A model generated the notes under the pieces. That model was not told the origin of the DNA. It saw only the letters and a program-made list of their open reading frames with translations, and did no database searches. Shown one piece after another: positions 4,577 to 56,215 of a stretch of DNA of 64,000 nt (position 1 is the first letter of the stretch; each line of letters opens with the position of its first letter). Made by a program: the position numbers and the translations under genes. The DNA is from Minisyncoccota bacterium (GTDB taxonomy: Bacteria > Patescibacteriota > Minisyncoccia > Phycocordibacterales > PALSA-1337): positions 156,942 through 220,941 of the forward strand of contig JBAZRG010000001.1 in NCBI GenBank assembly GCA_041663145.1. Direction: 5' to 3'.

Positions 4577-5710
4577 ATGAAAAGTGTCAATAATAAAATC
4601 AAGGTATTTGTGGGCCTTTCAGGTGGTGTAGACAGCGCGGTTGGTTCCGCATTACTTTTGAAGCAGGGATACGACGTCACTGGCGTATTTATAAAAGTCT
4701 GGCAACCGGATTGGCTCGAATGTAACTGGAAAGAAGAAAGGCTTTCGGCTATGAGAGTTGCCGCTCATCTCGGCATACCGTTCGTAACTCTCGATCTAGA
4801 AGAGGTTTATAAGAAAGAAGTGGTGGACTATATGATATCTGAATATGATGCTGGCAGAACACCGAATCCGGACGTGATGTGCAATCGCCATGTGAAATTC
4901 GGAGCATTTTGGAATTGGGCAAAATCAAAAGGAGCGACTTATATCGCAACAGGACATTATGCTAGAAATATAGAAACTGTTACAACTGGCTCTGACGGTT
5001 TCAGTTTGAAAACTGGTATTGATGACAATAAAGATCAATCGTATTTTTTATGGACTCTGAATCAGAATGATCTGAAGCATGTACTTTTTCCTGTCGGAGA
5101 TATCAAGAAACCGGATGTGCGAAAATTGGCAAAGAAATTTCGCTTGCCAAATGCCGAAAAGAAAGACAGTCAGGGAGTTTGTTTTATTGGTAAAATAGAT
5201 TTCAAGAAATTTCTATCGCATTATATAAAAACCGAACCTGGAAATGTTCTCGATGAATCGGGAAAAGTGATCGGTACGCATAGTGGATCGACATTGCTCA
5301 CAATAGGAGAAAGACACGGTTTTACAATAGACAAAAAGACTCCAAACGATAAACCTTTCTACGTCATATCAAAAGACCGTCTGAATAATACGATTACGGT
5401 ATCGAACAGAGTACCCGACGAAATCCAGCACGGTTCTTTGACCATTGCTCGGATTTCGAACGTGAATTGGGTGGCAGATCAGATACCGAAGGACAAACTC
5501 TCCCCATCAAATTCATCGTCTTCATCTCCGTTCAATCTGAAAGCAAGATGCCGTTATCGCCAAGAGTTGGAGAATGTTCGAATCAAAGAGGCGAGTGGGA
5601 CCAAAGCGGTCATCGAATTTGAAAAGCCTCAAAACGCACTAACGCCCGGACAGTCTCTAGTCATCTATGACGGGGAAATGTGTTTGGGAGGAGGAATCAT
5701 TGAGGTGTAA
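4577..5710 (+). CDS. mnmA: tRNA-specific 2-thiouridylase MnmA
   Basis: PP-loop motif VFVGLSGGVDSAV and an MnmA-like domain order. Confidence 0.8.
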   Translation: MKSVNNKIKVFVGLSGGVDSAVGSALLLKQGYDVTGVFIKVWQPDWLECNWKEERLSAMRVAAHLGIPFVTLDLEEVYKKEVVDYMISEYDAGRTPNPDVMCNRHVKFGAFWNWAKSKGATYIATGHYARNIETVTTGSDGFSLKTGIDDNKDQSYFLWTLNQNDLKHVLFPVGDIKKPDVRKLAKKFRLPNAEKKDSQGVCFIGKIDFKKFLSHYIKTEPGNVLDESGKVIGTHSGSTLLTIGERHGFTIDKKTPNDKPFYVISKDRLNNTITVSNRVPDEIQHGSLTIARISNVNWVADQIPKDKLSPSNSSSSSPFNLKARCRYRQELENVRIKEASGTKAVIEFEKPQNALTPGQSLVIYDGEMCLGGGIIEV

Positions 5711-36501: not shown

Positions 36502-36720
36502 ATGATTCTTTATAAAAATACAAACAGGGGACTTATAAAAATGGTTATCCTCATTGTGGTTGTCCTCCTAGCACTGGCATACTTCAGGGTCAATATCAGG
36601 AATATCATCAGTTCTGAGGTTTGGACAGACAATTGGAAATTCATCAGCGAATTTGCCGTCGCGGTCTGGACGAATTATCTCGAAGTGCCTATAACATATT
36701 TGTGGGGAAAGATATTCTAA
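36502..36720 (+). CDS. small hypothetical membrane protein
   Basis: 72-aa ORF with one TM segment. Weak. Confidence 0.3.
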   Translation: MILYKNTNRGLIKMVILIVVVLLALAYFRVNIRNIISSEVWTDNWKFISEFAVAVWTNYLEVPITYLWGKIF

Positions 36721-36924
36721 TTGTCCCAAAAAGATTTTCAAATTTTTTTTAGTACTCACTTGAAAGGAGAGTGTGATCAAAAACGCATCTCCAACCCTCT
36801 TTTATTTTTTTTAATAAAACAGGGAAGTGCCTAGCCTTTTAACCAGCCCTGCCTACCGCAAAGATATAGGTAGGGACATAGTTAAATCATAGTCAACGTT
36901 CAGTCAACGAATAAGAGCTTACAA

Positions 36925-36947
36925 ACACCGTCAACCGGTGTTTTTTT
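36925..36947 (+). terminator. terminator-like hairpin in the chromosome/phage junction region
   Basis: ACACCG-TCAAC-CGGTGT followed by TTTTTTT. There is no annotated gene immediately upstream. Confidence 0.3.
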
Positions 36948-37568
36948 ATTCCGACAGGACGGTGAAAACTTCGCATGAGCGTTTCAGTGGTCATTCCACT
37001 CCAGTGGTTTCCACGACTGATTCTGTACATGCAAAGTGCTTCATCGTTCTATCGGAGCTATCGAAAGCTCCGATTATACCTAACACGTTCTGTTTCCTCC
37101 GCCTCTTGTTAGGTGGCGGGGGCAGAGCGAAACCGTGAAAGTCGGTAACTAAAATGGTCAACATTGATTTAGCTCACAACTTCGCAGACAAAAACTGTGA
37201 CATCTGTGAGGGCGAGGGTGTGGTGTGTAGCTGGGACGGTCAAAGCGAGGCATGTCTATGTGTTCGTAAACATCATCGTGAAGTCGCCGATGAAATGAGA
37301 TTAGAAGATTCACTACAAACAGTATGAATAAAATCTACATAAGAGAACAGCAAAAGCACTTCTTCTTTGAAAGAAAAGTACACAAAGCATTAGACATTAT
37401 CAGTCTCACTATGTTGGTCGGCATGGTGATCGTAGCTTACTTCTAACATGGACGACGTAGTTATTAAATTGATGGGAGAAGTTGTTAAAACTTCTCAAAA
37501 TAGATTGGATAAATTGCTTGAAGAATTGACCGCCATAAGTCAGAGCTTAAAAGCGATAAACGACGCCT

Positions 37569-40360: not shown

Positions 40361-40638
40361 AATCCCGCATTATAAAAAACTGTAGAACATGTGGAAAGGA
40401 AATGTCTTTACGCCCAAGCATAGGTCATCAAAGTTTCTGTTCACATTATTGCTACGTTCAAAGCCGTTTAGGTATCCCGCTTTCAGAAGAGAAAAAGATT
40501 GAGATTGTCGAGATGATACTCAAGCCTAAAACATCTAACTGGGTAGGTGACAGTGCGGTATCAAGAGCAACAGGCGCAACAATTCATCAAGTTAGGCGCA
40601 TTCGGGAGAAATTACAAGTGTTCAATGAAAAAAGATGA
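40357..40638 (+). CDS. zinc-ribbon plus HTH small protein
   Basis: CRTCGK...CSHYC and the C-terminal ...ATGATIHQVRRIREKL. Confidence 0.4.
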   Translation: MKSRIIKNCRTCGKEMSLRPSIGHQSFCSHYCYVQSRLGIPLSEEKKIEIVEMILKPKTSNWVGDSAVSRATGATIHQVRRIREKLQVFNEKR

Positions 40639-41189
40639 AACGCTCGCCACTAAAGAAAAAGTCGAAATTACCAATCAGTAGATTGCAGAGGCAAATCTGG
40701 GAATACTTGTTATTTCTTTCTGCCAAAAGAACATATAAAAAATTACAAAATAAAAATGTATTTTCAATGAAAGACGCTAAAAAATGTATCAGGTGTGGTA
40801 AGTCTTATAGTCCAACATACAATATTTCTCAAAAAGAATGGGATAAGCAAAAATATTGTACTCGTGAATGCTCATATAAAGACAGAGTTAGTATTAAAAA
40901 TCCTCAGTCTGAAGAAGGTAGAAAGAAGATGTCGCTGTCAAAGATTGGTAGAAATAATCCTAATTACAAAGAAAACGGTACGACATTAAACGCATTGCAT
41001 AGGTATATGGAAAAAAGAGTTCCCAAACCGAAATGTTGTGAGATATGTAAAATTGCTACTCCGTTAGATTTAGCCAATAAGGGAAAATATTGTCGTGATG
41101 TTAAAGAGTGGTACTGGTTATGTAGAAGATGTCACATGTTATCAGATGGGAGAATGAAAAATTTGTCTCAATATAATGAAAAGAAATAA
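40635..41189 (+). CDS. NinG-like N-terminus fused to NUMOD3 repeats and an HNH-like Cys/His cluster (homing-endonuclease-like)
   Basis: The N-terminus MKRSPLKKKSKLPISRLQRQIWEYL parallels the downstream NinG-like gene. NUMOD3-like SEEGRKKMSLSKIGRNNPNYK. C-terminal CCEICK...WLCRRCH. Confidence 0.45.
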   Translation: MKRSPLKKKSKLPISRLQRQIWEYLLFLSAKRTYKKLQNKNVFSMKDAKKCIRCGKSYSPTYNISQKEWDKQKYCTRECSYKDRVSIKNPQSEEGRKKMSLSKIGRNNPNYKENGTTLNALHRYMEKRVPKPKCCEICKIATPLDLANKGKYCRDVKEWYWLCRRCHMLSDGRMKNLSQYNEKK

Positions 41190-42021: not shown

Positions 42022-42573
42022 ATGATATATACTGTGAGTATGATTTCATCAAAACATAATATATCAATAAAAGACTACCGAGATATTCATTACTGGTTAA
42101 AAAAGAATTTTGGTAAAGCAGAAAGATGTTACAACAAAGATTGTGAAAAAAAATCAACCGTATATCAATGGGCAAAAATAAAAGACAAAAAATATGTTAA
42201 AGATAGAAATAGTTTTACTCAATTATGTAGATCATGTCATTCAAAAGAAGATATAACTCAAGAGACGAAAGACAAGATTTCAAAGGCACACAAAGGCAGA
42301 AAACTATCCGAAGCACATAAAGAAAAGATACGACAATTCAACATAGGTAGGAAACACCCAAATTATCAGAAGACAAGAGAAACGAAAGACAAACTAGCAA
42401 AGAGATACACATTTAACGGAAAAACATTGAATCTTAGAGAATGGTCAGAGATAACAGGATTGCAGAAAAATACTCTCTGGACTCGTATAAATTCGTATAA
42501 TTGGACAATAGCAGATGCAATGACTATACCGTATTGTAAACACCTTAAAAAATATCATGCAAAAAATAATTAA
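42022..42573 (+). CDS. HNH homing endonuclease with NUMOD3 motifs
   Basis: ...CRSCHSKED... followed by tandem NUMOD3-like TKDKISKAHKGRKLSEAHKEKIRQFNIGRKHPNY and a C-terminal DNA-binding tail. Confidence 0.55.
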   Translation: MIYTVSMISSKHNISIKDYRDIHYWLKKNFGKAERCYNKDCEKKSTVYQWAKIKDKKYVKDRNSFTQLCRSCHSKEDITQETKDKISKAHKGRKLSEAHKEKIRQFNIGRKHPNYQKTRETKDKLAKRYTFNGKTLNLREWSEITGLQKNTLWTRINSYNWTIADAMTIPYCKHLKKYHAKNN

Positions 42574-43528: not shown

Positions 43529-43909
43529 ATGCAATACAAAAACAAAACAACAGGTGAGCTCATAGACTTAGACAATTTTGAAGAAGTAAAAGAACCATTA
43601 GACGGTTTCAAGAATTCTGTAAAACAAGTGATTGAAGGCAAGACTTTAGAATGGGGTGAGGTGTCAGATAGAGAAATGGACTGGTTTGAAGCCAAGGCGT
43701 GGTGTGAAGAAAGAGGTGGTCGATTACCAACACGAGTTGAACTCTTACAAGCATTTGATGAAAAAGTAGAAGGCTTCCAAGGTTTCTACTTCTGGTCGTC
43801 TACCGAGTACTATAATAATACGGCTCTCGCTTGGCCCGTGAACTTGGCCAGCGGCTACACTAACTTTAACACCAAGACTAATAGCGGCTACGTACGTTGT
43901 GTCCGTTAA
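43529..43909 (+). CDS. DUF1566 (Lcl C-terminal-like) domain protein
   Basis: W..ERGGRLPTRVELLQAF......YFWSSTEY...ALAW.V....G......K...GYVRCVR matches the DUF1566 signature. Confidence 0.55.
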   Translation: MQYKNKTTGELIDLDNFEEVKEPLDGFKNSVKQVIEGKTLEWGEVSDREMDWFEAKAWCEERGGRLPTRVELLQAFDEKVEGFQGFYFWSSTEYYNNTALAWPVNLASGYTNFNTKTNSGYVRCVR

Positions 43910-47585: not shown

Positions 47586-48164
47586 ATGGCAAAAGTAGGC
47601 AGACCAACAGATATAAGTTTGAATAGATGTCCACTTTGTAATGGATGTGGTGCTATTAATTATGATTTGGAAATCGCCTTAAAGGAAAAATTAAAACTTT
47701 ATGATGATAAGAAAATACCACAAAGTGCTATAACAAAAAGTATTTATGAAGTGTTATTCCTAAAGTATGGTTTTACACCAACTATTGGGGAAGCATTGGA
47801 GTTTTTTGAGATTCCTAATATTTCGATTTACAAATTCTTTTTGAGTAAAATCCAGAAAATTGGAATGGCTTTTATAAATGAAAAAGTTAATCAAAGACTT
47901 TCAAGAAGAAAAAGAATGCTTGCGATTATTTCGACAGATGATGGATCAATTACAAGGGAAACTCTTGATTCTTTAATCAAATCGCAGAATTTTAAGTGTA
48001 ATCTATGTAAGTGTTCAATAGTTGAGAGAGGTAACAGGCATGCAGATCATATAACGCCCTTATCAAAAGGAGGTGAACATCAGATAAATAACATTCAATG
48101 GTTATGTATTAATTGCAATGTGCATAAGAGTAATAAGATTAATTTCAATTTCAATGAAAAATAA
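47586..48164 (+). CDS. HNH endonuclease (terminase-associated)
   Basis: The C-terminus CNLCKC...HADHITPLSKGGEHQINNIQWLCINCNVHKSNK. It lies immediately upstream of the terminase genes. Confidence 0.6.
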   Translation: MAKVGRPTDISLNRCPLCNGCGAINYDLEIALKEKLKLYDDKKIPQSAITKSIYEVLFLKYGFTPTIGEALEFFEIPNISIYKFFLSKIQKIGMAFINEKVNQRLSRRKRMLAIISTDDGSITRETLDSLIKSQNFKCNLCKCSIVERGNRHADHITPLSKGGEHQINNIQWLCINCNVHKSNKINFNFNEK

Positions 48165-48522
48165 AGGAGGTAGACCAAAAATAATAGATGAAATCATTAT
48201 TGAAAAACTTGAGTTGGCATTTTCAATGGATGCAACTGATGATGAAGCGTGCTTTTATGCGGATATTTCACCTGCAACGCTGTATAACTATCAAAAGGAT
48301 AATCCAGTGTTTTTAGAGAGAAAAAACCAGTTAAAGCAAAATCCTGTTTTGCTTGCTCGAAAGACAGTTGTAGCGAAAATCCCAGAATCCTATCAAAACG
48401 CTATGGATTACTTGAAACGAAAGAGAAAGCGAGAGTTTGGCGATAACGTAGATATGACTACGAATGGCGAGAAGATAAACATAAGCTTCGACACTTCATT
48501 CAAACCAGATGCTTCTGTATGA
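48154..48522 (+). CDS. terminase small subunit (putative)
   Basis: MKNKGGRPKIIDEIIIEKLELAFSMDATDDEAC... gives an HTH N-terminus typical of TerS. It directly precedes TerL. Confidence 0.5.
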   Translation: MKNKGGRPKIIDEIIIEKLELAFSMDATDDEACFYADISPATLYNYQKDNPVFLERKNQLKQNPVLLARKTVVAKIPESYQNAMDYLKRKRKREFGDNVDMTTNGEKINISFDTSFKPDASV

Positions 48523-49891
48523 CAAACAAAAGATAATTGTCTCTAGTCCTGCTCGATTCAAAGTCGTTAGATCAGGTCGCAGATCAGGTAAAAGCACAGT
48601 AGCTATTGAAATCATGCTCTTTACAGCGGTCTCCAAGCGAAATCAGAATGTCTTTTACTTGAGTCCGAACATGAAGCAGTCTAGGGCTATTATCTGGGAG
48701 GCACTGAAAGCTAGGTTGAATGGCATAGGCAAGTTGAATGAAAGCAGGTTAGAAGTAGAGTTACCTACAACTGACGGCGGAGTATCGAGGATATACCTAT
48801 CAGGTTTCGAGGCGAGGGAGAACTTCAGAGGATTGCGTGCCGATCTTATAATCTTTGACGAGGTAGACACATGTAAAGACTTCTTCATTGGCTTTCAAGA
48901 GATATTCCGCCCTGCACTTATCGACACGGCCGGAAGTGTAGTATTCATCGGTACACCAAAGAAAGAAAATCCTAACCTTAGACGCTTGGAGAAAATATCA
49001 CAGACTGACAAGGACTATGCGTGCTTTCACTTTACCTCACTTGATAATCCATTCCTACCACAATCAGAAAAGGATAAAGCTAAAACAGAACTAGACTTTG
49101 ATACTTACAAGCAGGAGATACTTGCCGAGTATGTCGACAACGCTGGCTCGCTATTCAAGTATGAAGCTCTCATAGACGTATTCTCTAACACTATAGTCAA
49201 AGAGAATAGCAAGTATCTCATCGTAGACATCGCTGATGACGGCTCGGATAAGACAATATTCTCATTCTGGGAAGGACTTGAGGAGTATAAGCGTGAGGAG
49301 TTTGATAGGTTAAACACAGAAATGATTATAGGAAAGATACGAGAGTATGCCTCTACTGAACGTATCCCTTACTCGCATATAGCCGTTGATGCCATAGGCG
49401 TAGGTGCAGGTGTGGCATCTTCATCCTTGCTAGACGGTATCGTGGGATATAAGTCATCATATGGTCCAATAAAGACTGACCAGAGCATCGTGTTACTTCC
49501 TAACGCCGGATATTTCAGAGATGCTTCACTTGTATCGGAGTATAAGAACCTACGCTCTCAATGCGTATTCAATCTCGCCGACCTAGTGAACAATCACAAA
49601 ATCGCCTCAAGAGTTACTGGTCGTCAGAAAGAAGTAATCATCGAGGAACTCTCAAACTACCAAGACGCTTCACAAGGTGACGGTAAGCGTATGGCTACCA
49701 TGAAAGAGAATGTTAAAGAAGCGATAGGTCATTCACCCGATGCATCAGACTGCTACATCATGCGTATGTACTTCGTAATTCTAGGGCGTATGATACCCGG
49801 ACAGTCCGAAGAATCATCACGAGTAGCTACTATCCAACAGAATCGTTTTGCTATGAATAAAAAGAATCAGATACTAAATGGAACGAAGTAG
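48509..49891 (+). CDS. terminase large subunit
   Basis: Walker A VVRSGRRSGKST and Walker B LIIFDEVD. The size and nuclease-domain region are consistent with TerL. Confidence 0.85.
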   Translation: MLLYDKQKIIVSSPARFKVVRSGRRSGKSTVAIEIMLFTAVSKRNQNVFYLSPNMKQSRAIIWEALKARLNGIGKLNESRLEVELPTTDGGVSRIYLSGFEARENFRGLRADLIIFDEVDTCKDFFIGFQEIFRPALIDTAGSVVFIGTPKKENPNLRRLEKISQTDKDYACFHFTSLDNPFLPQSEKDKAKTELDFDTYKQEILAEYVDNAGSLFKYEALIDVFSNTIVKENSKYLIVDIADDGSDKTIFSFWEGLEEYKREEFDRLNTEMIIGKIREYASTERIPYSHIAVDAIGVGAGVASSSLLDGIVGYKSSYGPIKTDQSIVLLPNAGYFRDASLVSEYKNLRSQCVFNLADLVNNHKIASRVTGRQKEVIIEELSNYQDASQGDGKRMATMKENVKEAIGHSPDASDCYIMRMYFVILGRMIPGQSEESSRVATIQQNRFAMNKKNQILNGTK

Positions 49892-49940
49892 CTTTTTTTG
49901 TGAAAAGGTGATATAATGTATTCAAAGTTAAATAAATCAG

Positions 49941-49970
49941 GGGCGAAACTTGTTTTTCGCCTCTTTTTTA
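49941..49970 (+). terminator. rho-independent terminator after terL
   Basis: GGCGAAA-CTTGTT-TTTCGCC followed by a T-tract. Confidence 0.55.
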
Positions 49971-49993: not shown

Positions 49994-50416
49994 ATGCAAA
50001 CATTAAAAGTTTTGGTCACTGTAGTTATGTTAGCCATAGTCTCTGCTTTCACTATCGCAATTCTAACCCAACCAGATGCACCACAGGAATTAAAGCGTTC
50101 ATACGCAGGTGTAACGATTGGTAATGAATATCAATCTACTAGCACTGATTCGACATGGGCTGGATTAAAGAAAGCTGTTGTCACAAATACTAGCGGTGTG
50201 TTGGGTTCAGTCATCGTAACAGGTACATCAGCTACGGTATTTGAAATTAAAGACGCTACATCTACGACTGACGTATCTTCAACGACACTAGCCACGTTCG
50301 CCGCCTCTCCGGGTACAGGAACATATGTCTTTGACACTATTTTCACCAGAGGACTATCAATCAATGCTCTCGGTTCATTTGCTGGTAAATACACAGTCAC
50401 GTTCAGGTCTAACTAA
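49994..50416 (+). CDS. hypothetical membrane-anchored Thr/Ser-rich protein
   Basis: N-terminal TM helix. Unusual position between terL and the portal gene. Confidence 0.4.
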   Translation: MQTLKVLVTVVMLAIVSAFTIAILTQPDAPQELKRSYAGVTIGNEYQSTSTDSTWAGLKKAVVTNTSGVLGSVIVTGTSATVFEIKDATSTTDVSSTTLATFAASPGTGTYVFDTIFTRGLSINALGSFAGKYTVTFRSN

Positions 50417-50422
50417 ACACCA

Positions 50423-52264
50423 ATGTCAAAAGAATATGACAATATCGGTGAATGTACTGTAGGTGAGCTTGTTCGTAAAGCTGAACAGGACTACAAAGGA
50501 GACACGCTCATATCCAAGCATGTAACTAGAAACATGCTCGATACTCTGAATAAGATTGACGCATATCATTATTCTAAACACACGGAAGGAGGTGACAAAG
50601 ATTCACAAGGGAGAGATAAGCCATTCCCGAATATCGTTACGTCAGCAGAGAATATCTGGTATCGGGCGACTGATATAGATCGAGGGAAGATCAAGGTTAA
50701 GGCAGTCAAATCCAAATCTACAATGGATGCTTTCTTGGCGACTGTACACGTTCAGGACTGGATGCGTAAGGAGAACTTTGGAATATTCTTGAATGAATGG
50801 GGAAGAATGCTTGCTCGCTATTGTTCAGCAGTAGTTAAGTTTGTAGAGAAAGAAGGTGAATTACACAGAATGGTTGTACCGTGGCAGAGAATTATATGTG
50901 ATTCAGTAGACTTTGATAACAACCCTGTTATTGAGGTTTTGGAACTTACAGAAGCTCAGCTAAGACAGAGAAAGGGTTACGATAAAGAGATTGTTGAGAA
51001 GTTATGTAAAGCCAAAGCTACACGAAAGACGATCGAAGGTCAGCCAGTGGATAACAAGAGCGATTACATTCGTTTGTACGAGGTTCACGCTCTCTTACCG
51101 CTTTCATACCTTACAGAAAAAGAAAAAGATGAAGACACATACGTTCAGCAAATGCACGTCATCTCATTCGTAGCCGGTAAAGAAGAAGGAAAGTTTGATG
51201 ATTTTACTCTCATCTCCGGTAAGGAAGAAAAGTCACCTTACATGCTCACTCACCTTATCCGTGAAGAAGGTCAGACACTCGGTATCGGACCAGTCGAAGG
51301 ATTGTTTGAAGCACAATGGATGCAAAACCATTCATCAAAGGCAATCAAGGATCAACTAGACCTTGCAGGTAAGCTCATATTCCAAACATCAGACGGTACA
51401 TTCGTAGGTCAGAACGCTCTTACCGCAGTAGAGAACGGAGATATTCTAATTCATGCAGTAAATCAACCTATCACCACAGTCGCAAATACAGCACACGACA
51501 TTACTTCATGGCAGTCTTTTGCGAATCAATGGAAAGTGCTAGGTAACGAGATAACAGGTGTATCTGAATCAATGCTAGGCAACACAGCCCCTTCAGGTAC
51601 AGCATGGAGACAGGTTGAAACTCTATTACAAGAATCACATGATCTCTTTAACTTGATGCGACAGAACAAAGGACTTTACATCGAGGAGATGTTCAAGAAA
51701 TTCGTTATCCCATTCGTTAAGAAACAGATGGACACTTCAGAAGAAGTCTCGGCTACGCTTGAGGACTACGACATTCAGAGGATTGATGCCAAGTATATTA
51801 AGAACAGGTCTACCCTCATAACAAACAATCTCATCAAAGATAAGGTGTTATCAGGTCAGCCAGTATCACCAGAGGAACAAGCAATGATGACTGAAATGGC
51901 GGCAAATGGTCTCAAAGAATCTCTATCGGATCAGGGCAATCAACGCTTCTTCAAGCCGTCTGACATAGATACAAAGACATGGAAGATGCAGTTTAAGAAT
52001 TTGGAATGGGAAGTACAAGTTGATGTTACGGGTGAATCCACAGATCAGAATGACATGACGACACTGAACACCATGCTTGCATTCTTCGCACGTAAACAGG
52101 GTATGCCACTTACGCCAGAAGAAAAACTGATATTCAACAAGTTGCTTGCACATACAGGTACGGTCAGTCCGATGGAGCTTTCAGCATTACCTGCTCCAGT
52201 TGCTCAACCTTCACCATTACAGGCTAATCCAATGGCAACGCCATCGGCGGTCGGGAGCCAATAA
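50423..52264 (+). CDS. putative portal protein
   Basis: 613 aa, lying immediately downstream of terL. The call rests on position and size, not on recognised motifs. Confidence 0.45.
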   Translation: MSKEYDNIGECTVGELVRKAEQDYKGDTLISKHVTRNMLDTLNKIDAYHYSKHTEGGDKDSQGRDKPFPNIVTSAENIWYRATDIDRGKIKVKAVKSKSTMDAFLATVHVQDWMRKENFGIFLNEWGRMLARYCSAVVKFVEKEGELHRMVVPWQRIICDSVDFDNNPVIEVLELTEAQLRQRKGYDKEIVEKLCKAKATRKTIEGQPVDNKSDYIRLYEVHALLPLSYLTEKEKDEDTYVQQMHVISFVAGKEEGKFDDFTLISGKEEKSPYMLTHLIREEGQTLGIGPVEGLFEAQWMQNHSSKAIKDQLDLAGKLIFQTSDGTFVGQNALTAVENGDILIHAVNQPITTVANTAHDITSWQSFANQWKVLGNEITGVSESMLGNTAPSGTAWRQVETLLQESHDLFNLMRQNKGLYIEEMFKKFVIPFVKKQMDTSEEVSATLEDYDIQRIDAKYIKNRSTLITNNLIKDKVLSGQPVSPEEQAMMTEMAANGLKESLSDQGNQRFFKPSDIDTKTWKMQFKNLEWEVQVDVTGESTDQNDMTTLNTMLAFFARKQGMPLTPEEKLIFNKLLAHTGTVSPMELSALPAPVAQPSPLQANPMATPSAVGSQ

Positions 52265-52288
52265 TAATTACGGTGGGGATTATTACAA

Positions 52289-53134
52289 ATGATAAGCATA
52301 ATTATACCAGTACGCTTCAGAGCAGACCTTACTCAAGTCTGCATTGATAGCATACTACTCTACACGAAAAACTTTGAGTTGATTGTGGTCCAAGAGGGTG
52401 AGGACGAGGAAGTAAGAAATCTACTTCTAGAGACTTACTATCCTAGGTTTGATTCAATGTTTGTTGATTATGAGAAGTTTAGAACTGAAAGACAAAAGAG
52501 AAAAGAGGTTAAAGAGAGTGAAAAAAGTCGAGGTGGCGAGTTTGTTATGGGATCATACCCTTACGACAACGATAGCGAACCGAGGCTTAAATATGTCCAA
52601 AACAAAGTTCCTAAGGGCTACGCAGGTGCATTGAATGCAGGTCTCTCCATAGCCACAGGTGATTACTACTGCTTCATGAACAATGACACGGTAGTCACTC
52701 CGGGTTGGATGGATGAGATGTTGAAAGCGTTTGAGGATAAAGATGTTGGTTTGGTCTCTCCTACATTCTGGGGAACAGGCGACAGACAGAGCGTGGATTG
52801 GAATAATGGCGACCAGTTCGACAATGTTCTTGATCCGACTTCAATCATAGGTGTCTGCTATCTCATCTCAAAAGAGTGTATGTACAAGGTGGGAGTATGG
52901 GATGAATCGTTTGGTCATGGGGGAGAGGATTTTGACATGACTATTCGTGTTCAGAATGCCGACTACAAGCTCGTTATCGCCAGGAGGGCGTTTATTTATC
53001 ACTATGGCGGAGCAAGTACAAGGATAGTGATAGGGAATGACCTAGATAAGGTTAGAAAGAATCAAATGGAGAAAATAATGATGGTCGAAACAAAGCACGG
53101 GATAGACATTAGAAGTAAATTTATACAAAAATGA
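52289..53134 (+). CDS. family-2 (GT-A) glycosyltransferase
   Basis: MISIIIPV...; GYAGALNAGLSIATGDYYCFMNNDTVV; GGEDFDMTIRV, a GT2 acid motif. Confidence 0.7.
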   Translation: MISIIIPVRFRADLTQVCIDSILLYTKNFELIVVQEGEDEEVRNLLLETYYPRFDSMFVDYEKFRTERQKRKEVKESEKSRGGEFVMGSYPYDNDSEPRLKYVQNKVPKGYAGALNAGLSIATGDYYCFMNNDTVVTPGWMDEMLKAFEDKDVGLVSPTFWGTGDRQSVDWNNGDQFDNVLDPTSIIGVCYLISKECMYKVGVWDESFGHGGEDFDMTIRVQNADYKLVIARRAFIYHYGGASTRIVIGNDLDKVRKNQMEKIMMVETKHGIDIRSKFIQK

Positions 53135-53697
53135 GTAACGAAAAAAGAAAAGTACAGAGCATGAGAATAAGTGACGCAGAGTTTGAACTCTTGAAGTCAA
53201 CCTTTTCAGAGAGAGAGGAGTTGTTAAAGACAATCCGTAACCTATTCTTTGGTCTTCCTATAACGGATGATGAAAAGAAGCAGATACGAGAGACATTTAG
53301 CGGTGAAGCTCTAAGAAAGTTGATGCGTAAGCAGTTCTTACCAGAGTTGCAGAACGATCTGCCTATCGGTCAAGCAATAGATTTGTGGATGACTATAGAT
53401 TTGAAGGATAAGGCACCAGAGCAAGCACGCTACATAGTCATTGCCAGAAAGCTCTTGATTGAGATGGTAGAACAATCATTGAAATTATTGGAAAATCCTG
53501 ACTTGGTTCCGGTTGATTTAACCGAATGGCAGATCAAAGAGGAGGCTCCTGACTTGGTTGGCACTTCTTTGATAGCACGCAACACATTTATCTCCCACAC
53601 TGACCAGCAATTGGCGGTCATTAGAACATTAGCAGGTCAAAAACTGGAGACAGTTGAGGAGACAAAGAAGCGTTTGCTTCAAGACAGTAGCAAGTAA
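53131..53697 (+). CDS. hypothetical head-morphogenesis-region protein
   Basis: 188 aa, mostly helical by composition. Confidence 0.4.
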   Translation: MSNEKRKVQSMRISDAEFELLKSTFSEREELLKTIRNLFFGLPITDDEKKQIRETFSGEALRKLMRKQFLPELQNDLPIGQAIDLWMTIDLKDKAPEQARYIVIARKLLIEMVEQSLKLLENPDLVPVDLTEWQIKEEAPDLVGTSLIARNTFISHTDQQLAVIRTLAGQKLETVEETKKRLLQDSSK

Positions 53698-53774: not shown

Positions 53775-54308
53775 ATGGAAACCGAAGAAACTGTTGTAGT
53801 GGACACAACTGAAACAACCACACCGGAAGTAACGCCTGAAGTTACAACACCTGATGAAGGTGCAGAGGAAAGCATAGAGGAGGTTAAGGAAAAATTGACG
53901 AAGGCAGAGAAAAAAGCCAGCGATCAAGAACAGCGAGCCATTATCGCAGAGAAGAAACTCAAAGATAAGCCCACTGTAGAATCCAAACCTGACGGATTGT
54001 CATCAAAAGACATAATTGCGCTTTCAAAAGCCGATGTTCATGAAGATGATCTGGATGAAGTGCTGGATTACGCTAAATATAAGAAAATCTCCATTGGAGA
54101 TGCTCTAAAATCAAACGTTATCAAGACACTTCTAAAAGACAAGCAAGATGAACGTAAGACTGCCGCCGCTACTAATACAGGCACAGCCAGACGTGGTTCG
54201 GTCAAAGTATCTGATGAGGAGATTGTCGATAAAAGCACAAAAGGACAGCTCCCAGAAGACCCTGAGGCACTTGCTAAGGCACGTTGGAACCTTAAGAAGA
54301 AGAAATAG
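53775..54308 (+). CDS. scaffolding-like acidic coiled-coil protein (putative)
   Basis: Glu/Thr-rich N-terminus and Lys/Glu-rich helices. Its position precedes the capsid candidate. Confidence 0.35.
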   Translation: METEETVVVDTTETTTPEVTPEVTTPDEGAEESIEEVKEKLTKAEKKASDQEQRAIIAEKKLKDKPTVESKPDGLSSKDIIALSKADVHEDDLDEVLDYAKYKKISIGDALKSNVIKTLLKDKQDERKTAAATNTGTARRGSVKVSDEEIVDKSTKGQLPEDPEALAKARWNLKKKK

Positions 54309-54469: not shown

Positions 54470-55252
54470 ATGCTAGTAGCAGAGAAAATCTGCACAGTAG
54501 ATCGCACTGAATCAAAATACATTCAGAACCCTTATCAGACAGCTCCTACAGCGGTCGTTCAAGCCGTAGTCGGAACATACGCAACAGCCGCTTTCACAAC
54601 GACTGAAGATGCTCTTACAGTAGCCGATGAGGTTTACTGTGCAGAACACATCTACGATTTTGAAGCCGCTCTTGCTCACTTCGACCTTTTCGCCGCTCGT
54701 GTAGACGACATGACTGCTTCGGTTGCAACAGCAATTGATAAGTATGTCTTGAACGTGCTCGTAGACGCTGGTACAGGTGCTTACACAACACTAACAGGCG
54801 GATTTACAACAGCCGCAAACTGGAATGTTATTCTCGCTAACTTGCTTTCAAAGTTTGCAGGTTATGCCGATAACTTCCGTGGTATGTACTTGGTTGTAGA
54901 GAATACCGACTTGGTAGGTATCGTGCAGTCACAAATGGCTTCTGGCTTTAATTTCGCCGATGCCGCTCTCAATAACGGTTTGGTTTCAAATCAAGCTGGT
55001 ATAGAGATTTACGTTGTCCGATCTGGCACGTTTGCTAGCTACACACCGGGTTCTTACGGTGCAGTTACAAACTCTGGTCACAGAATGGCAGGTATAAAGG
55101 GAATCTCCATTTATGCCGCTCCTCGTGGAATCCAGTACGAAGAGAAGTCTGTTAGTGCCAAGACTGGAAAAGAAGTAGTTGTCTGGGGCTATATCGGAGC
55201 CAAAACATGGGCGCCTAAGCTCGGTTTGGTCATCGACATCACAATCGCCTAA
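54470..55252 (+). CDS. major capsid protein candidate
   Basis: 260 aa, Ala/Gly/Thr-rich, directly after the scaffold-like gene. Assigned by position. Confidence 0.4.
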   Translation: MLVAEKICTVDRTESKYIQNPYQTAPTAVVQAVVGTYATAAFTTTEDALTVADEVYCAEHIYDFEAALAHFDLFAARVDDMTASVATAIDKYVLNVLVDAGTGAYTTLTGGFTTAANWNVILANLLSKFAGYADNFRGMYLVVENTDLVGIVQSQMASGFNFADAALNNGLVSNQAGIEIYVVRSGTFASYTPGSYGAVTNSGHRMAGIKGISIYAAPRGIQYEEKSVSAKTGKEVVVWGYIGAKTWAPKLGLVIDITIA

Positions 55253-55567: not shown

Positions 55568-56215
55568 ATGGATTCAAAAAAAATATCAATCGGTGCGCTT
55601 CTAGTCACTACTCTAGTTTTTGGAGTATTGGCTTTCAAAGCTCCCTCGGTTGTAACAGTTCCAGGACAATCTCTTGGTAACTCAAGCCCGGTAGTTAACG
55701 TACCTGCTCCAGTAGTCAATGTTCAGGTTCCTGAACAAAAAGCTCCTGTAGTAAACGTCAACGTACCAAAGCAGTCACCAGTATTGGGTGCTATGGCAGG
55801 TCCAGATGTATTCTACCGATCTTCATTCCATAAAGGTTTGACAGTTGGAGGTTATATCGCAACTACATCAACAGCGGCTACATATACGACTAATTCAGCC
55901 GATTTTGCTGCTATTCCTACGGTTGTTTTGTGGACACCAAACGTAAACACTACTGTAACCTTGAATGCAACTTCTACTTTCTACTACGTTCCCGATGTTG
56001 GAGATGTAGCAACTGTATATTTGCAGAACGCTTCAAGTACAGCAGGTGCAACCATTACTCTAGCGGCACAGAACGCTAGTGTTGATCTTCAGTTTGCTGA
56101 AGCAACAGGTGGTGACCTCGTATTGAGCGGTCTTGATTGGGCAAAACTCACTTTCATTCGACAGTCAACAAATAAAGTCACAGTCATATTCGATGAAATG
56201 ACTGAAGCTGACTAG
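55568..56215 (+). CDS. hypothetical protein with an N-terminal TM and PVVNV repeats
   Basis: Repeats VVNVPAPVVNVQVPEQKAPVVNVNVP. Confidence 0.4.
   Translation: MDSKKISIGALLVTTLVFGVLAFKAPSVVTVPGQSLGNSSPVVNVPAPVVNVQVPEQKAPVVNVNVPKQSPVLGAMAGPDVFYRSSFHKGLTVGGYIATTSTAATYTTNSADFAAIPTVVLWTPNVNTTVTLNATSTFYYVPDVGDVATVYLQNASSTAGATITLAAQNASVDLQFAEATGGDLVLSGLDWAKLTFIRQSTNKVTVIFDEMTEAD

Follow-up and report, generated by a model that had tools for sequence, protein, structure and literature searches.

We analyzed a gene for a family 2 glycosyltransferase (GT2), here called GT, that lies among phage head genes in a 64,000-nucleotide stretch of contig JBAZRG010000001.1 (positions 156,942 to 220,941). The whole stretch is referred to as the window. 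The contig carries the NCBI label Candidatus Paceibacterota. Judged by its sequence and by a structural model, the GT product is an intact GT2 enzyme of the GT-A fold with conserved catalytic residues, and it already carries a glycosyltransferase annotation at NCBI and JGI. The gene and the motifs of its product are as follows.

52289-53134, + strand: GT gene, 281 amino acids (aa), ATG start and TGA stop; open reading frame (ORF) with a PF00535 match, predicted soluble GT2 enzyme of the GT-A fold
52391-52411, + strand: QEGEDEE, aa 35-41, at the position of the GT2 nucleotide-binding 'DxGS' segment; E36 and G37 invariant
52436-52576, + strand: window-specific insert of about 40-47 aa (aa ~50-96); variable surface loop with a charged helix and a disordered stretch
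52679-52687, + strand: NND, aa 131-133; variant DxD motif, invariant in the family
52898-52936, + strand: WDE...GGEDFD, aa 204-216; Gal/GalNAc-transferase-type motif with the candidate catalytic base E213/D214
53000-53011, + strand: HYGG, aa 238-241; invariant His, a candidate third metal ligand by comparison with the K4CP and ppGalNAc-T enzymes described below

The protein matched PF00535 (Glycos_transf_2) in Pfam with an E-value of 2.8e-19 and 70.1 bits against a cutoff of 23.3. Further GT2-like Pfam families above cutoff were PF10111, PF13641 and PF13632. Four PHROG families annotated as 'glycosyltransferase' were matched as well, more weakly than those of Pfam. None of the named NCBIfam GT2 subfamilies (MftF, EpsD, PgaC, rhamnosyltransferase, PglI and others) was reached; the best was TIGR03965 with 56 bits against a cutoff of 280. 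No transmembrane segment was found in the protein.

Motif conservation was judged on a GT family alignment of 29 sequences. In this alignment E36, G37, N131, N132, D133, W204, D205, E206, G211, E213, D214, D216, H238 and Y239 were invariant, and G212 was nearly so (at least 90%). A first reading, made from the sequence only and without database searches (the sequence-only reading), had called the GT2 motifs clear, and both NND and GGEDFD (aa 211-216, nucleotides 52919-52936) were located as it had quoted them. The first Asp of DxD is lost in NND, which is nevertheless counted as the DxD metal/nucleotide-binding motif. Its D133 was aligned to the second Asp of 'DCD' in K4CP, the chondroitin polymerase of E. 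coli K4, by a hidden Markov model alignment to 2z87. The WDE...GGEDFD stretch was aligned to the K4CP 'FDEEFTHWGGEDNEF' segment in a profile search of PDB sequences, with E213, D214 and D216 falling on the WGGEDNE segment. The sequence-only reading had made its assignment depend on catalytic acidic residues; these are present and invariant, both in the alignment and in the comparison with K4CP.

An AlphaFold2 model was built from the family alignment. Its mean predicted local distance difference test score (pLDDT) was 86 and its predicted template modelling score (pTM) 0.82. Values were low only at the insert at aa ~50-96, across which pLDDT was 39-71. This insert is missing from most homologs in the alignment, and two of them (P0033 and P0060) have other inserts at the same loop. 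Structure prediction and active-site comparison, which had been proposed as checks, thus gave a confident GT-A model and motifs that align to K4CP. A Foldseek search with the model returned 533 PDB matches at E<=1e-3, and the best 50 of the 533 were all GT-A-type glycosyltransferases. Leading among the matches listed were polypeptide GalNAc-transferases (ppGalNAc-Ts), K4CP, AvpGT, WrtF, RmlT and TarP, with E-values from about 1e-11 to 5e-10. In the profile search of PDB sequences, the best groups were the K4CP A1 domain (E=1.9e-19), GalT1 of the Fap1 protein-glycosylation pathway, and again the ppGalNAc-Ts.

The K4CP A1 domain and the ppGalNAc-Ts (GT2/GT27) were thus the best profile and fold matches. 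They have in common with GT the GT-A core, the last Asp of DxD, the WDE...(W)GGEDxD/E motif and the C-terminal His. In contrast to them, GT has NND in place of DxD/DxH and is a single 281-aa domain with neither a lectin nor a second glycosyltransferase domain, and identity was 14-19%.

Head operon and the conserved position of GT

The gene order around GT is terminase large subunit (TerL), orf140, portal, GT, orf188, orf177 and major capsid protein (MCP), followed by further structural genes, among them a homolog of a podophage fibre protein (PF23140) past the capsid gene. Below, phages with and without the glycosyltransferase gene are called GT+ and GT-.

48509-49891, + strand: TerL; PF03237 (3.2e-13) and phrog_2 (4.1e-41)
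49994-50416, + strand: orf140, small protein between TerL and portal; N-terminal transmembrane anchor, 29% Ser+Thr
50423-52264, + strand: putative portal, 613 aa; named from its place after TerL, 47-71% identity in more than 50 loci, and PHROG matches of the family
52272-52278, + strand: Shine-Dalgarno-like GGTGGGG, read from the sequence, 10 nt upstream of the GT ATG within the portal-GT spacer
53131-53134, + strand: ATGA overlap of the GT stop and the orf188 start; translational coupling
53131-53697, + strand: orf188, predicted all-alpha head-module protein, in GT+ and GT- relatives alike
53775-54308, + strand: orf177, acidic, charged and scaffold-like by its composition and its place directly upstream of the capsid gene
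54470-55252, + strand: MCP, 260 aa; phrog_267 'major head protein' (3.8e-10) and a weak PF25209 match
55568-56215, + strand: orf215, N-terminal hydrophobic anchor; Ser/Thr-rich (20% Ser+Thr) with PVVNV repeats

The sequence-only reading had put GT in the head-morphogenesis block, and not in a moron or lysogenic-conversion position. Spacer, overlap and neighbours all agree with this placement. The portal stop and the GT start are 24 nt apart, and GT overlaps orf188. No private promoter or terminator was found for GT, and the 24-nt spacer is too short to contain a promoter: promoter-like and terminator-like sites occurred at the frequency of shuffled sequence, and none of them brackets the gene. 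Only short chance repeats were found at its flanks. From the short spacer, the ATGA overlap and the absence of bracketing promoter, terminator or repeats, we conclude that GT is an integral cistron of the head operon and not a moron. A strong terminator-like hairpin, with a 10-bp stem followed by a T-run, lies just past TerL at 49939-49964, so that the portal-GT-capsid block may be a transcription unit of its own, apart from the terminase genes.

The names given to the flanking genes need more caution. The order of TerL, portal, GT, orf188, orf177 and MCP stood, whereas 'portal' and 'scaffold' are putative labels drawn from synteny and weak profile matches. The portal protein of the window itself had no Pfam, PHROG or PDB match by sequence or profile, and its scaffold-like protein had no Pfam, PHROG or PDB sequence match. 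Some members of the portal family matched phrog_156 'portal protein' (3.5e-4) and phrog_332 'head-tail adaptor' (1e-9), and the putative portal, of 613 aa in the window, is kept directly after TerL in every relative. The C-terminal half of orf177 is conserved in relatives. All members of the phage lineage have the protein encoded by orf188, which is predicted with fair confidence to be all-alpha; no sequence or fold relative was found in any library searched, including Pfam, PHROGs and NCBIfam. It represents an uncharacterised family of head-module proteins. The products of orf140 (with homologs in loci L023, L082 and L091) and orf215 are conceivable glycosylation targets or membrane-associated assembly factors; homologs of both are also found in the GT- locus L082.

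No phage similar at the DNA level was found in GenBank. A tblastn search with GT against 50,697 GenBank phage records gave only three weak matches, all to uncultured gut phages. A large protein collection held 156 homologs at E<1e-5. Most of these were 230-250 aa long, and many were encoded on contigs of 34-39 kb that resemble complete phage genomes. Genomic contexts were drawn from this collection, from IMG/VR and from JGI metagenomes, and gave 32 distinct loci with a GT of at least 43% identity. A locus was taken as informative for the slot if at least 400 nt were present on the respective side of GT. A portal homolog was found upstream of GT in 18 of 19 informative loci and an orf188 homolog downstream in 24 of 26, so that a search for the same gene order in related phages recovered it. 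The exceptions were L025, in which both sides fail, and L056, in which orf188 was not detected. The sequence-only reading had also considered a recent insertion flanked by repeats; repeats of this kind were not found at GT, and about 30 relatives carry the gene at the same position.

Spacing within the slot was compared among the relatives. Of 27 relatives that have both GT and orf188, 26 show a distance of -32 to +27 nt between them and L057 one of 108 nt; the gap between portal and GT spanned 1-810 nt. This gap contains an HNH endonuclease in L041 and an S-adenosylmethionine (SAM)-dependent methyltransferase in L040 (L040:1169-1648; PF08241, 4.5e-11). In L022, an NAD-dependent sugar epimerase/dehydratase directly follows orf188 (L022:2283-3290; PF01370, 6.7e-40). 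Thus, sugar-tailoring genes recur in the head operon. The capsid gene homolog of L040 (L040:4500-5995) is split in two, with about 710 nt (4787 to 5501) inserted between the parts. An intron, an intein or an inserted endonuclease may account for them; no Rfam family match for a group I intron was obtained in this split gene.

The exceptional locus L025 encodes a two-domain homolog of 441 aa (L025:10001-11326) that is 47% identical in its GT domain. Its neighbourhood is a chromosomal GT2/methyltransferase cluster. The contig, of 321 kb, also encodes Rho, TatC and a sortase. In a neighbour-joining (NJ) tree of the GT family, the 15 chromosomal forms among the two-domain homologs of about 440 aa (P0094-P0120) formed one clade nested in the phage GT radiation. 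This suggests a transfer from phage to cell that was followed by domain fusion, although the rooting of this sequence tree is weak.

Phage-encoded GT2 enzymes are common. The fixed slot of this GT subfamily between portal and orf188 in Patescibacteria-associated phages, together with its presence/absence polymorphism, appears to be undescribed. Papers on Patescibacteria phages mention glycosyltransferase or sugar-pathway auxiliary metabolic genes only generically (PMC12455944, PMC12911398).

Distribution of GT and the prophage context

A search based on the portal returned mostly GT- phages, in which orf188 directly follows the portal gene after 23-301 nt; these phages have either lost GT or never carried it. 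About 26 GT- loci (some 15 distinct IMG/VR loci and 11 of 11 informative GTDB loci) retain homologous portal, orf188, scaffold and MCP. Therefore, GT is not needed for head assembly. A search for GT pseudogene remnants in the portal-orf188 gaps of GT- loci gave chance-level matches only.

Mean pairwise identity among the GT+ phages was 59% for GT, 57% for the portal, 62.5% for MCP and 37% for orf188. GT is thus about as constrained as the core head genes, which points to purifying selection. Divergence of GT and portal was not significantly correlated by rank (Spearman 0.12, p=0.48), since most pairs are near 50% identity, and the Pearson coefficient of 0.76 was driven by a few close pairs. 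Constraint and history were therefore read from the mean identities and from tree topology, and not from the divergence correlation. When an NJ tree of the concatenated portal and MCP sequences was bootstrapped, the bipartition of GT+ and GT- phages was recovered in 0 of 100 replicates. The clade of the window phage with L023 and L024 (100%) joined the GT- loci L082 (82%) and L002 (76%), and four other GT+ phages formed a separate clade (74%). This split of the GT+ clades implies at least two gain, loss or cassette-exchange events at one slot. On these sequence comparisons, GT is an old, conserved and dispensable accessory cassette and not a recent insertion.

The first 36.5 kb of the window hold host housekeeping genes (aminoacyl-tRNA synthetases, RpoA, DnaK/DnaJ, FtsW, MurG and an RND pump). 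Beyond a host/phage border at about 36700-37400, the rest of the window (from about 37 kb) carries phage-type genes, all on the + strand, which is also that of the preceding host genes; the right end of the prophage lies past the window. The phage, possibly podovirus-like and roughly 37 kb long, is likely integrated as a prophage in the chromosome of a Candidatus Paceibacterota member of the candidate phyla radiation (CPR). An assembly chimera at the host/phage junction is the alternative to integration; attachment-site scans of the left border gave no integrase, tRNA or Rfam match. The prophage state in a CPR chromosome, the accessory distribution of GT and the position of its nearest cellular homologs in chromosomal glycan clusters had not been part of the sequence-only reading.

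The portal relatives from GTDB came from metagenome-assembled genomes (MAGs) with mixed labels. CPR labels were the plurality (Saccharibacteria four times, Parcubacteria and Peribacteria once each). Others among L080-L094 were Blastocatellia (on a 401-kb contig), Gammaproteobacteria and DPANN archaea. Many of these relatives lie on short contigs and are probably mis-binned. L086 belongs to MAG nzgw467, which is a prophage-bearing Paceibacteria MAG according to PMC12455944.

Homing-endonuclease-like ORFs (NUMOD3, HNH and LAGLIDADG-like) are present in the window at 40635-41189, 42022-42573 and 47586-48164. Similar ORFs are found in the head-module gaps of relatives (L001:6008-6373, L041:3086-3661, L052:1866-2441 and L040:2978-3637), and the head operon of this lineage looks like a hotspot for selfish insertions. 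An early-region protein of 126 aa (43529-43909) has an Lcl_C/C-type-lectin-like domain (PF07603, 3.4e-11) and could bind glycans.

Possible roles of the enzyme

The sequence-only reading had named virion proteins and host surface polymers as possible targets. We lean towards a role of GT in the glycosylation of one or more virion proteins, and we hold this tentatively, at somewhat less than an even chance. The GT cistron would be transcribed and translated within a late head-morphogenesis operon (orf140, portal, GT, orf188, orf177 and capsid), with the late timing suggested by position. The product would be an active, soluble and cytoplasmic GT-A/GT2 enzyme, as sequence and model predict. Its donor would be a nucleotide sugar, probably UDP-hexose or UDP-N-acetylhexosamine (UDP-HexNAc), because the WDE...GGEDxD motif is like that of K4CP and the ppGalNAc-Ts. 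Transfer of the sugar to virion protein(s) would take place in the cytoplasm during head assembly, and by analogy with some mycobacteriophages the virions would leave the cell with a glycan coat. Some relatives add tailoring genes for a sugar epimerase/dehydratase or a SAM-methyltransferase to the operon. In favour of such a role, the Foldseek and profile matches were led by the protein-O-glycosylating ppGalNAc-Ts and K4CP. Its predicted solubility, its membership in the head operon with a fixed slot, its constraint, its dispensability for assembly, the tailoring genes of relatives and the mycobacteriophage precedent count in favour as well.

The best functional analogy for a soluble glycosyltransferase in a late operon may be the virion glycosyltransferases of mycobacteriophages (Che8 of cluster F1, Corndog of cluster O; PMC11600133, PMC11256854). 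According to these papers, which both cite Freeman et al. 2023, the enzymes glycosylate capsid and tail-tube proteins, sometimes together with an O-methyltransferase. Like GT, they are phage-encoded and dispensable for assembly, and they decorate capsid or tail. The cluster O enzymes are accompanied by a methyltransferase, as is likewise the case in relative L040. In contrast to GT, the mycobacteriophage genes come as tandem sets, those of cluster F1 lying near the 3' end of the genome and not between portal and capsid, and no sequence relationship to GT is detectable. The hosts also differ, Actinobacteria there and Patescibacteria here, and glycosylation, demonstrated in the mycobacteriophages, is here a proposal.

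Several points weigh against virion glycosylation. Direct evidence for an acceptor is lacking, and fold and sequence similarity do not identify one. TarP and RmlT (wall-teichoic-acid glycosyltransferases) and glycosyltransferases of lipid-linked glycans match the fold about as well as the protein O-glycosyltransferases. The closest non-phage homologs, with 47% identity, are domains of chromosomal glycosyltransferases in envelope-glycan clusters. In the tblastn search of the 50,697 GenBank phage records, homology to the mycobacteriophage enzymes was not found at E<=1e-5. Late expression is read from position only. The genes of this operon are closely spaced throughout, so that the ATGA overlap is no specific sign of a functional pair and the coupling of GT to orf188 is no special evidence.

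As a candidate acceptor, Ser/Thr213 of MCP was considered and rejected. This position is Ser or Thr in 12 of 13 GT+ and in 1 of 16 GT- phages, but the GT- loci L082, L002 and L083 also have Ser. An exchange of Ala and Ser is moreover conservative, and other columns discriminate equally well. The Ser in these three GT- loci means that the column follows phylogeny and not the presence of GT, which also speaks against a glycosylated virion.

GT could instead modify a cell-envelope glycan of the Paceibacterota host, acting on a lipid-linked precursor, a wall polymer, an S-layer protein or a pilin. The effect would then be an altered phage receptor, which would exclude superinfection or save progeny from being lost on debris and already-infected cells, or a host surface changed for the episymbiotic lifestyle. 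We regard this as unlikely, though as a serious contender. The apparent integration of the phage makes a temperate lifestyle likely and lysogenic conversion conceivable; the nearest cellular relatives of GT, two-domain proteins of about 440 aa with 47% identity, are encoded in a chromosomal GT2/methyltransferase cluster; and the similar fold scores of TarP, RmlT and protein glycosyltransferases leave room for such an acceptor. Reports of many surface-glycan genes in Patescibacteria genomes and their phages (PMC12911398, PMC12455944) also count in its favour. However, GT has no transmembrane helices and no GtrA- or GtrC-like partners, and it lies in mid-operon without a promoter or terminator of its own, away from any immunity or integration region. 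Expression in the lysogen is therefore unlikely, and envelope remodelling late in the lytic cycle would have little time. The strict slot between portal and orf188 in about 30 phages is also unlike typical morons. The model for an envelope role is TarP, the GlcNAc-transferase for wall teichoic acid of S. aureus prophages, which like GT is a prophage-borne GT2/GT-A enzyme (fold E-value about 3e-10). Unlike GT, it is expressed from the lysogen and encoded outside a head operon, and the match to it is no better than those to dozens of GT-A enzymes. The GtrABC serotype-conversion cassettes of temperate enterobacterial phages likewise place a GT2 enzyme, GtrB, on a temperate phage. In contrast to GT, GtrB is membrane-anchored, accompanied by the flippase GtrA and by GtrC, and encoded next to int/att.

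It is quite improbable that GT travels inside the head as cargo, taken up next to the portal and ejected together with the DNA so that it glycosylates a host target early in infection, comparable to T4 Alt or the MuF/SPP1-gp7 polymorphic toxins. GT-A enzymes do serve as injected effectors in other systems, and GT is accessory and swappable, as cargo would be. The slot directly after the portal is also that of the SPP1 gp7/MuF-type minor head proteins, which often have enzymatic effector domains (PMC5576092, PMC6316719). Against this, searches of Pfam, PHROGs and NCBIfam showed no MuF domain (PF04233) and no fused targeting domain in GT or orf188, the enzyme consists of one compact domain, and nothing places it in virions; the epimerase and methyltransferase of relatives fit the building of a glycan better than a one-shot effector. 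A function in DNA hypermodification, in which GT would glycosylate hydroxymethyl-pyrimidines of the phage DNA around packaging as a protection against restriction, is highly improbable. Phage enzymes of the GT-A fold, TarP-like and with R...DDD...EDY/F motifs, do glycosylate 5-hydroxymethylcytosine and sometimes adjoin terminase or DNA-handling genes (bioRxiv 10.1101/2023.12.21.572611). GT resembles them in its fold, its EDF motif and its location in the packaging/head region, and L023 and L024 encode a C5 DNA methylase. However, the known enzymes cluster with a C5 methyltransferase (C5-MT) and a TET-like dioxygenase (5mYOX) or a ThyS gene, none of which is beside GT. Among the scanned phage genes of the 64-kb window there was no 5mYOX/TET dioxygenase, thymidylate-synthase-like hydroxymethylase or C5-MT, the sole methyltransferase being a small Methyltransf_11-type protein. 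In the 20 kb seen of L023 and L024, no such Pfam match was obtained beyond the C5-MT, and a base-modification gene was never adjacent to GT in about 30 loci. By their defining features, GT is not of the Gtr, TarP, DNA-glycosyltransferase or MuF type. That GT is a mere passenger, selfish or neutral, or an inactive relic is barely credible. Most relatives that share its head genes lack it, and the head module of the lineage attracts homing-endonuclease ORFs; yet the gene is intact in all of the about 30 loci with invariant catalytic motifs, it is as well conserved as portal and capsid and far better than orf188, and pseudogene remnants were not found.

Taken together with its distribution, glycosylation of the virion by GT can be drawn into a wider picture, which we put forward with a good deal of reserve. 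A widespread lineage of CPR phages may coat its capsids with a glycan made by the head-operon GT, with an optional epimerase or methyltransferase, and this would be virion glycosylation outside the actinobacteriophages. Because the nearest cellular homologs lie in chromosomal surface-glycan clusters and appear nested among the phage sequences, the coat might imitate a glycan of the host surface, and the enzyme may have been passed on by a phage to its host.

Demonstrated cases of virion glycosylation come, to our knowledge, mostly from mycobacteriophages. The cluster O note describes such modification by phage glycosyltransferases in that group (PMC11600133). The candidate described here is compact, consisting of one soluble 281-aa enzyme and a handful of head proteins, and the natural polymorphism of GT+ and GT- phages with homologous heads suits comparative work. 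If the envelope of the host were the target, GT would be an unusual conversion gene embedded in a late operon. The cell surface of Patescibacteria and their episymbiotic attachment depend heavily on glycans. If virion proteins are indeed the acceptors, the presence of a head-operon GT in about 30 uncultivated Patescibacteria-linked phages would extend virion glycosylation to an uncultivated host group.

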